DNA of 64,000 bases from an uncultured Nitrospiraceae bacterium (GTDB taxonomy: Bacteria > Nitrospirota > Thermodesulfovibrionia > Thermodesulfovibrionales > UBA6898): NCBI GenBank assembly GCA_963811165.1, contig CAWEQH010000010.1:672001-736000 (forward strand). The letters are read 5' to 3'. This document shows, in pieces, positions 24,001 through 27,000 of the stretch. Position numbers: made by a program. Positions within the stretch are counted from its first letter, which is position 1; each line of letters starts with the position of its first letter.

Positions 24001-27000
24001 AAAGCATTTCAAAAGGTAATTGTATTATGTACTAATGGGGCCCCTTTTAAAATTTAGGTTTCCGACCGAGGTCAAGCGTAAAAAATTGTAGACTGTCTGA
24101 GCTCCGGATTCCGGAGCGAGTTTCTACAATTTAGTGAGACCGACCAGAGGAAACCGTTAAGAATTTTATCTGGGGTGCGTACTTTTGGGCACTTTTCATT
24201 CGCATCAATGAAAAGCGCCCGGGTATAAGGGGCGGAGCCCCTTTTTCGCCTGCGGAGAAGCTCCGCCCATTCCCTATTGATCGGATGTGCGTTATCATAG
24301 AGCATCAATAATCGAAATCATTCGCCTGATTTAATTAATCATAGAAGGAGATAACTTGACGGACAAAGCGCCTCTTTATAACCTTACGATAGGAAACCTA
24401 TGGGAGAACATCTGGCGCACCTCATGGCCCATGTTCCTCACTATGGTTTTCACCTTTTTGGTCGGATTTACCGATGTCTATGTCGCGGGGTTCATAGGAC
24501 CCGAGGTGCAGGCCGCCGTGGGTTTCGTGAGCCAGTTTTACTTTCTTATTACGATAGTCGCAAACGCGATAAGCATCGGCACGCTGACGCTTGTTTCGAG
24601 GGCAATGGGCGCAGGCGACGATAAAAAGGCGATTGAAATCGCGAGACAGTCCCTGCTTTTCAGCATCGCCGTGGCCGCCGGCATCACCTCCGGCTGCTTC
24701 TTGTTCTACAGGGAGATAATCGCCTTTGCCGGCTTTCCGGAGGGCACAAGGGAAATGGCAGAACGGTTCCTCAGGATATTTGCCCTCTCGCTGGGACCAA
24801 ACTATATCCTGATAATTTCGAATGCGGTCTTCAGGGCGTCAGGCGAGGTGAAGAAACCGCTGTTTACGATGTTCCTTGTAAGCCTCATCAATATCGCAGG
24901 CGATTTCGCGCTCGTCTTCGGCATATTTCCATTTCCTCACATGGGGTACATCGGCATAGCGATCTCGACTGCGGCATCCGTCACCGCCGGAATGGCCGTC
25001 AGTCTTGGACTGTTTACTGTAGGATGGTGGCGTTCTTTTTATTCCCGCCCCTGGACCCTCTCCTACAATGTGGTCTTTAAGATCGCAAGGATCGGCTGGC
25101 CCGCGGCAATGCTTCAGATCGCATGGAATGCAGGCACGATCGTCTTGTATAATATCCTCGGTCGTCTCGGACCGGCGAGCATCCCGGCCCTGGCCTCGAT
25201 CACCAACGGGATGAGGATTGAGGCGATCATTTACCTGCCGGCCTTCGCACTTAATATGGCCGCCTCCGTACTGGTCGGGCAGAACCTTGGCGCAGGCAGG
25301 GCAGACCGTGCTGCGCAGGCGGGATGGAAGATAGCAAAGGCCTGCGTCCTTATTATAAGCCTTATGGCGGTACCTATCTTCATATGGGCCGAACAGTTCG
25401 CCTCCCTGCTTACAAAGAACCAGGCCGTCCTTGCGGAAACGGCCCGTTATCTTCGGTTCAACATGCTCTCTGAACCCTTCATGGCATTGAGTGCAATCCT
25501 GGGAGGAGGCCTTCAGGGGGCCGGAGATACGCGTGGGACGATGTGGGTGATCATTATTTCGATGTGGTTCATCAGACTGCCCCTAGCATATTCGCTGGCG
25601 CTTGTTATGGGCCATGGGGCCACAGGGGTCTGGACCGCCATGATTACGTCCATGGCCTTTCAGGGCATACTCATGTCGCTTCGGTTTCAGCAGGGACACT
25701 GGAAAAAACTCGGGTTCGATTAAACTATAAAGTAAGATGCTGAGACTATTCAATACATACGGAAAAAAGATCGTTCCCTTCCGGCCGGTCAACAATAAAG
25801 TCACCACCGTATTCACCTGCGGCCCCTCGGTCTACCAGCGGTCGCATATCGGCAATTTCAGGACCTTTCTGTTTGAGGACGTACTTGTTCGCTACCTCGA
25901 ATATTCAGGGCACAAAGTGGTCAGGGGGATGACCGTCACAGACATAGAAGACAAGGCGATAGAAGAGGCGGCAAAAAACGGGACGACCGTCAGGCGCCTC
26001 ACCGATGAAAATCTAAAGGTATTCATCGGGGAGATGAAACTCCTTAAGATGAAAAGGCCCGATTTCCTTCCAAGGGCATCGGAGAATATAAAAGAGGCCG
26101 TCGAGATAATCAGGCGGCTTCTTTCACGCAGTATTGCCTACAGGCATGGGGGGAACGTCTATTTCGACCCGACAAAGTTTCGGGGGTTCGGAAGTCTTTA
26201 TGGACTCGACATGACGAAATGGCCCTCTAAGAGAATGAGGTTCCACAAAGATACCTATCCGGGCATGAGGTGGAACCTCGGGGACTTCATCCTCTGGCAC
26301 GGATACAGGCCGGGCGACGGGGACCACTGGGAGACGGCAATAGGCAGGGGAAGACCTTCATGGAACGTGCAGGACCCGAGCATGATAAGTAGATATTTCA
26401 ACGAAACCCTTTCCATCTACTGCGGCGGCATCGACAATCTTGTCCGGCACCATGACTATTCGAAGGCGGTCCTGGAATCGGTGCGGAGATATCCCATGGC
26501 GCGGTTTTGGCTCCACTGTCGTCACCTGCTGGTTGAGGGGCGGAAGATGTCTAAAAGCAGAGGGAACATCGTCTACCCCGAAACCCTGCTTAAACAAGGG
26601 TACAGTCCCGAGGAGATCAGGTTTTTCCTTGTCTGCGGCCATTATCGCAAAGACCTCAACTATTGCGAGCAAAGTATTAAGTCGGCCGTTTCGGCACTAA
26701 GGGAGATAAAGAAAAAGGTTGCAGAAATTCGGAAGAAGGCAGGCGTGTCCCGTCCCGATCAGACGATTACCGGAAAGGTCGAAGAGATTTTCAGCAAAGG
26801 GATGGACAACGACCTCGATGCAGCAGCCGCCTTCGACGGACTTCGCGAGATGCTGTCCCGAGACTATATAGAGCGCTTAAGCCCCAAAGAGGCTTCGGGC
26901 GTCGTCGCCGGCATGAAGGAGATCGACAAGGTCTTCAGGGTCATCTTTTAGAATGCTTCTCATTTATCCGCCCGTTTCGAAACCGTCCGAACCCCCGGCT

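Follow-up and report, generated by a model that had tools for sequence, protein, structure and literature searches.

The gene examined here encodes a class I ligase derived from cysteinyl-tRNA synthetase (CysRS) and lies in a 64 kb window (the whole stretch of DNA analysed) of a Nitrospirota genome, between an exporter gene and a radical SAM gene on the same strand. The features are:

24356..25723, + strand: MATE-family exporter, 455 aa, with two MatE repeats and TIGR00797 above cut-off; nearest solved chains Aq128 and PF0708
25737..26951, + strand: CysRS-derived class I ligase, ORF of 404 aa, ending after the helix bundle and without the terminal anticodon-reading domain
25818..25856, + strand: ligase residues 28–40, from Cys28 (kept zinc ligand) to the HIGN motif; C28, G29, H37, G39 and N40 in 121/121 members
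26220..26276, + strand: CP1 acceptor loop, rebuilt as basic and aromatic, W162-P-x-K-K-x-R-F-H-K-D-T-Y-P-G-x-x-W-N180, standing in for the GARV loop of CysRS
26361..26375, + strand: W209-N-V-Q-D213; Asp213 occupies the position of the E. coli zinc ligand Cys209 and is Asp in 245/245 members
26445..26462, + strand: R237-H238-H-D-Y-S242; the His234 ligand is kept, Glu238 is gone (as in MshC), and Arg and Tyr are new
26544..26558, + strand: KMSKS motif, residues 270–274; K270, M271, S272 and K273 in 121/121 members
26953..28509, + strand: B12-binding-like radical SAM protein, CxxxCxxC present, its ATG 1 nt after the ligase stop

The ligase gene is intact and is the second CysRS copy of the genome, the canonical CysRS being encoded elsewhere (G000:C8). 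The second copy had been pointed out in a preliminary description of this DNA, and the ORF, the Pfam match (tRNA-synt_1e, 236 bits) and the alignment confirm a 404-aa protein with a class I Rossmann fold that keeps HIGN (37–40) and KMSKS. The absence of a fitting NCBIfam model is likewise confirmed, as the protein falls below every model cut-off, with its best score to cysS (TIGR00435; 289 bits, cut-off 340) and 188 bits to the MshC model TIGR03447 (cut-off 485). The predicted structure (pLDDT 91) matches CysRS at TM 0.89 (8qhp) and 0.86 (1li5) and MshC at TM 0.81–0.82, and its lowest-confidence part is the CP1 loop (pLDDT about 60). The earlier statement that the protein ends before the anticodon-binding domain is correct for the terminal domain of ~60 residues, the only part missing (R423, R427, D436 and R439 are absent in 83/83 aligned members), but not for the helix bundle, which is modelled at helices 311–400, and DALR_2 exceeds its cut-off in both further family members scanned (P0038 and P0276).

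The residues HIGN, KMSKS, C28, G29, T68, W209, H238 and H260 are conserved in both subfamilies, and even between bacterial and archaeal members of 42–45% identity the catalytic motifs do not vary. Alignment against 1li5, 8qhp and 3tqo shows that WHIEC has become WNVQD and HHENE has become HHDYS. The zinc ligands of E. coli CysRS are C28, C209, H234 and E238 (PMC7563103), which confirms the numbering used in the preliminary description; C28 and H234 are kept in the family. A replacement of two zinc ligands throughout the family had been proposed and stands, but the residue in place of E238 varies (Thr in 76 members, Ser in 38, Asn in 7; n = 121) and is not always S. The changes specific to the family lie elsewhere and are H206N, E208Q, P233R, E236D, N237Y, the loss of H224 and K185, and the rebuilt CP1 loop, with six adjacent pocket positions (N210, Q212, D213, R237, D240 and Y241) altered together and then fixed. 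The lost residues (R423, R427, D436, R439, H224 and K185) are near-invariant in canonical CysRS, and within the canonical comparison set (n = 102), where H206, E208 and C209 are fixed by the selection motif, H224 (100/102), K185 and the tail residues are independent of that motif. Retained in the family are R168, the HYR motif, Y298 and R299, D349 and the helix bundle. The net charge of this ligase is +21 (subfamily medians, +15 and +11); canonical CysRS stands at −8.5 and MshC at −20 and −37.

The zinc-site changes had been taken to indicate a substrate other than cysteine, an inference that is not supported. Full-length Thermoplasmatales-type CysRSs read WH[IV]EDT, i.e., C209D, in 120/120 sequences, including those of T. 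acidophilum, T. volcanium (SYC_THEVO), Picrophilus and Ferroplasma (Asp209 is carried by P0416, P0422, P0245 and relatives, and by P0156, P0224, P0260 and P0263), and to our knowledge these enzymes are the sole route to Cys-tRNA in those organisms. MshC, in which the corresponding motif is HHEYS or HHEFS, i.e., E238S, ligates cysteine (PMC5370406), and E238 is therefore dispensable. As C209D and E238S each have a counterpart in an enzyme that is annotated as using cysteine or known to do so, the argument against cysteine fails. A zinc held by Cys/Asp/His binds the substrate thiolate in protein farnesyltransferase. A similar thiolate site is plausible in the ligase, and cysteine would be its likeliest substrate. 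We know of no enzyme that combines C209D, the loss of E238, H206N, E208Q, P233R, E236D and N237Y. In E. coli CysRS, engineered C209D strongly lowers translation activity (PMC10655014, PMC7563103).

On the acceptor side, the family lacks the GARV loop, with which CysRS recognises the first base pair of tRNA-Cys (PMC5389517), and has the invariant basic and aromatic loop W162–N180 in its place; H224 and K185 have gone and R237 is new. Presumably, H206, H224 and K185 act at the 3′ end of the tRNA. Because of the basic loop, the gain of R237 and the positive net charge, the acceptor is probably an anion, which could be a small molecule with phosphate or carboxylate groups or could be RNA, the latter staying a candidate as the family retains R168, the helix bundle and the HYR motif. 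No tRNA-Cys or tRNA-Sec (ARAGORN) and no match to the SelB-like protein of this genome occurred in 173 ligase loci, and neither tRNA-Cys/Sec nor selB occurs in the window. Across 160 loci, no acceptor-making enzyme (MshA/B/D-like or other) is a conserved neighbour of the ligase, and searches of this genome (95% complete) for BshC and the glutathione-synthetase ATP-grasp family gave nothing. Overall, the earlier proposal of a ligase with a changed substrate or acceptor is upheld in that the protein probably does not charge tRNA-Cys, but the reading of the zinc changes as a sign of a non-cysteine substrate is not supported.

Database searches with this protein and with a 43%-identical member returned 3543 and 3579 matches, respectively, totals that include some canonical CysRS; the best 120 of each are family members. 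Named matches include Thermodesulfovibrionales, Deltaproteobacteria, Lokiarchaeia and Hodarchaeota, and the relatives, where named at all, are called cysteinyl-tRNA synthetase or class I tRNA ligase. The ligase occurs in 34/401 Nitrospirota genomes (≥80% completeness), all in the order of this genome, which revises an earlier count of 7/201; internal stops are absent from 34/34 of these matches. Among genomes sharing the class of a Syntrophales-titled genome, 13/151 have it, and among those from the same phylum as a Desulfobacteraceae-titled genome, 9/351 gave matches, one of which (G879) is a full-length CysRS and not a member. An apparent Chloroflexota occurrence (L063, G026) was dropped, as it has the contig number, coordinates and score of G379 in the Nitrospirota sample. 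Viral contigs held no relative of the ligase, plasmid searches gave cysS- and mshC-type matches only (all <60% identity), and the ESM Atlas gave generic CysRS-like clusters only.

In trees, the first of which was a quick search, the family forms a single clade (SH-aLRT 100) beside tail-less, basic HIGN-type proteins that retain C209, and MshC is placed among the HIGH-type CysRSs. A sister relationship to MshC, suggested by the shared motifs, was rejected in a topology test based on a quick tree of 43 rows, two of them MshC (p-AU 0.0036). As the family clade adjoins tail-less proteins that keep C209, the tail was probably lost first and the pocket remodelled later. Four tail-less, very basic CysRS-like proteins (P0135, P0139, P0146 and P0152), three of them named Micrarchaeota or ‘Ca. 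ainarchaeum’, keep Cys209, and P0152 reads WNVQC...HHENT, an intermediate or parallel state. The view that the protein represents a distinct, strongly conserved adenylating CysRS paralogue, and is not the CysRS of the cell, is supported. The literature search, thin on subscription journals, found no paper on this family.

The MATE gene ends 13 nt upstream of the ligase start, and the same MATE subfamily (54–85% identity) lies directly upstream in 55/80 GTDB loci (the best 80 of 259; one without room), an association stronger and wider than the one previously reported for Nitrospirota. Nor is it confined to that phylum, as had been stated, since 19 of the MATE-adjacent loci are titled Syntrophales, Syntrophaceae, Syntrophobacterales, Deltaproteobacteria or Thermodesulfobacteriota and a separate class sample has the MATE adjacent in 9/13 ligase loci. 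Counting the window, there are 56 MATE–ligase loci, and no other gene is upstream in more than 9 of them or downstream in more than 7. For the 401 Nitrospirota genomes, both genes are present in 29 (27 adjacent), the ligase only in 5, the MATE only in 7 and neither in 360, such that the MATE occurs in 29/34 ligase-bearing genomes compared to 7/367 without the ligase. The second class (151 genomes) has both genes in 9 and in one further genome with frameshifts, the ligase only in 4 and the MATE only in 8. This frameshifted pair (L224, G439; both genes affected, probably by assembly error) scores below the ligase search threshold. Where the MATE is not adjacent (25 loci), an orthologue lies elsewhere in 9 genomes. 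In Syntrophia, the ligase has dropped out of MATE loci that match in other respects. A divergent ligase was absent from the five MATE-only genomes examined for it, 5/5 of which had a single PF01406 match, the canonical one. Across 80 metagenome loci, the MATE was found in 6/22 close members and 0/58 distant members (37 with >1 kb upstream). Most supported splits of the ligase tree (19/22) recur in the MATE tree, a result that co-descent alone could give. The link between ligase and MATE is real, not obligate, and the MATE is a specific orthologous subfamily travelling with the ligase in the Nitrospirota/Syntrophia branch.

The radical SAM gene, described earlier as coupled to the ligase, does begin directly behind it, but the link is weaker than described; as a conserved partner it was rejected, being downstream in 4/80 relatives only (the best 80 of 259), and is a local addition. 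Distant members lie behind a peroxiredoxin gene in 15 loci and before DinB in 10, and others are near OsmC-hydrolase, ferritin-like, DsrE and SOD genes. A redox-defence gene (one of eight families) occurred in 52/166 loci compared to a mean of 3.4 (maximum, 10) for random windows of this genome, a count biased upward by queries drawn from the loci themselves, kin counted separately and a single control genome.

Elsewhere in the window, clpS, a ClpA-like ATPase and a Leu/Phe-tRNA-protein transferase (20433–23691, minus strand) run divergently from the MATE operon and are not conserved beside relatives. A stand-alone PilZ gene (28626–28910) lies 3′ of the radical SAM gene, followed by an ABC-F ATPase seemingly split into ORFs of 217 and 441 aa (30072–31944), an integrase-like gene read from its translation (33643–34938) and short genes of low GC (38%; 34950–38000) suggestive of an integron array. 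The window had no Rfam match, a promoter and terminator scan gave chance-level results only, and no upstream motif common to 74 ligase loci rose above shuffled controls. In the genome at large, the canonical cysS (L001:814–2916, G000:C8) is in frame with an upstream hexapeptide-repeat, CysE (serine-acetyltransferase)-like region with no stop between, an arrangement also present in 5/5 other Nitrospirota examined (L116–L120); the reading frame may encode a CysE–CysRS fusion or contain an in-frame internal start. A tRNA-Sec-shaped tRNA with a GCA anticodon (L202:1137–1226; G000:C4:471037–471126; Rfam tRNA-Sec, 57 bits) lies between a LysR regulator and rhodanese/TusA genes, with a normal tRNA-Cys and tRNA-Sec also present. 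It is a SelC*-like tRNA-Cys of the kind described in PMC5389517.

The explanation we favour, with a confidence somewhat short of even, is that the protein is an MshC-like, tRNA-independent cysteinyl ligase for an anionic acceptor, tied to oxidative stress and export. The ligase would bind ATP and an alpha-amino acid and form an aminoacyl-adenylate, a step well supported by its motifs. Cysteine or a close thiol would then be chosen by the Cys28/Asp213/His238 metal site, with the fourth position left for the substrate thiolate, and the cysteinyl group may be passed, instead of to tRNA-Cys, to a small anionic acceptor, for example an amine with a phosphate or carboxylate group, which the basic CP1 loop and Arg237 would hold. 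From the gene context, the product might help anaerobes in redox or stress defence, and export of the product or its conjugates might fall to the co-transcribed MATE in the Nitrospirota/Syntrophia branch. This reading is supported by the kept motifs, the presence of C209D and E238S in cysteine users and the same end helix as MshC; by the loss of residues near-invariant in canonical CysRS, the lack of tRNA-Cys, tRNA-Sec or selB nearby and the presence of a canonical CysRS; and by a MATE adjacency that is kept while other flanks change and redox genes that recur nearby. Its weakest point is that no acceptor-making enzyme travels with the ligase gene. Further against it, the protein is basic (+11 to +21), unlike MshC, and still has the helix bundle, R168 and the HYR motif, features that fit RNA binding; C209D cripples E. 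coli CysRS and the combined pocket changes recur in no known enzyme; and the MATE is absent from 58/58 distant loci and still present in 7 Nitrospirota and 8 Syntrophia genomes that lack the ligase. A more specific form, in which the ligase performs the cysteine-ligating step of an undescribed low-molecular-weight thiol, an independent counterpart of mycothiol that lets strict anaerobes survive oxygen and that the MATE exports, as such or as conjugates, is a long shot; if true, the thiol pathway would be found in strict anaerobes as far apart as Nitrospirota, Syntrophia and Asgard archaea.

The charge and the kept R168, Y298/R299, D349 and helix bundle would suit an anticodon-blind, RNA-directed enzyme that charges cysteine or another amino acid on a changed tRNA acceptor end, as CysRS* does, or on a modified base, as GluQ/YadB does, an explanation to which we give a modest chance. 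The CysRS-like proteins closest to the family are tail-less and very basic and have a full zinc site, the lack of a universal partner gene suits a ubiquitous acceptor, CysRS* provides the precedent (PMC5389517), and this genome has a SelC*-like tRNA-Cys. However, the 173 loci were free of tRNA-Cys/Sec and selB, the loop is not of the PTVS type, H206, H224 and K185 are lost, and the exporter partner is left unexplained. By BLAST, in which selC and selC* are inseparable, the closest SelC*-like matches (86–90%) fall in family f10, where 0/4 genomes have the ligase, and three ligase-bearing genomes (G177, G383 and G387) have no SelC*-like match.

Activation of a different amino acid is unlikely, be it Ser or diaminopropionate, bound by a Cys/Asp/His metal of harder character, or an oxidised cysteine (sulfinate or sulfonate) at Arg237. 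The joint shift and fixation of six adjacent pocket positions and the crippling effect of engineered C209D on E. coli CysRS (PMC10655014) speak for it, and oxidative-stress neighbours would fit an oxidised-cysteine substrate, yet C209D and E238S each occur in cysteine-using enzymes, the C28, W205 and H234 equivalents are invariant, and Asp213, placed under the side chain, would disfavour an anion. A dedicated cysteine-persulfide synthase, retaining the PLP-dependent side activity of CysRS after the loss of aminoacylation, is very improbable. The C209D and C28/209D mutants of E. coli CysRS do keep persulfide synthesis and lose translation (PMC5660078, PMC10655014), the K73, K266 and K269 equivalents are invariant in the family, and the redox neighbours would fit; but K76 of the KIIK motif, the single mutation of which (K76A) lowers the E. 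coli activity (PMC5660078), is found in only 8/83 members, and the activity needs neither the invariant HIGN nor a rebuilt acceptor loop. Least credible is a decaying or non-catalytic copy with the MATE adjacency as passive synteny inside stress islands, for although occurrence is patchy (34/401, 13/151 and 9/351), the ligase is gone from otherwise matching Syntrophia MATE loci and the tree congruence could be plain co-descent, the catalytic motifs are invariant in bacteria and archaea at 42–45% identity, 34/34 Nitrospirota matches are free of internal stops and the MATE adjacency survives while all other flanks change.

The ligase can be placed against several known systems. With canonical CysRS (TIGR00435; 1LI5/1U0B, 8QHP) it shares the fold (TM 0.86–0.89), HIGH/KMSKS, C28/W205/H234/H256 and the helix bundle, and it differs in the missing terminal anticodon domain, C209D with the loss of E238, H206N, E208Q, P233R, E236D and N237Y, the rebuilt CP1 loop, its basic charge, its status as a second copy and its patchy occurrence. 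The H-x-G-N subtype CysRS and the tail-less Micrarchaeota-type copies are closest to the family in the tree. MshC (TIGR03447; 3C8Z, 8HFM) has in common with it the length, the end at the same helix, HH[ED][YF]S with N237 to Y/F and E238 to S, the loss of H224 and the lack of a tRNA tail. MshC differs in its separate origin, in keeping H206, E208 and C209, in being acidic and in its acceptor loop, and the ligase is not actinobacterial; judged by sequence and tree position, the resemblance is convergence in two tail-less lineages. The Thermoplasmatales CysRS (SYC_THEVO) shares Asp at the Cys209 position and differs in being full length with a CysS_C tail, in keeping H206, E208 and E238, in being acidic and in lying on a separate branch. 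GluQ/YadB is a truncated synthetase paralogue. It is GluRS-derived and sets a precedent for a paralogue that acylates a modified tRNA base (PMC9437257). CysRS* of Desulfobacterales, compared here by its description only (PMC5389517), is likewise a second CysRS without an anticodon domain, with an altered CP1 motif and overlapping anaerobic hosts, and differs in lying downstream of selC*/selB* and in its PTVS CP1 motif (here W-P-x-K-K-x-R); a CysRS*/SelC* linkage was considered for the ligase and rejected on its loci and loop. By the features examined, the ligase is neither canonical CysRS, MshC nor, as far as that description allows, CysRS*. The available text of the review PMC9437257 gives MshC and CysRS* as the only CysRS paralogues. 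What is new here is the natural C209D in Thermoplasmatales CysRS, the rejection of MshC kinship and the counted co-occurrence with the MATE. The first shows that a Cys/Asp/His variant of the textbook zinc site exists, a point of relevance to cysteine selection by CysRS. The ligase itself, a soluble single-domain enzyme and a synthetase paralogue turned ligase, represents a third, independent CysRS paralogue with thousands of database relatives across bacteria and archaea.
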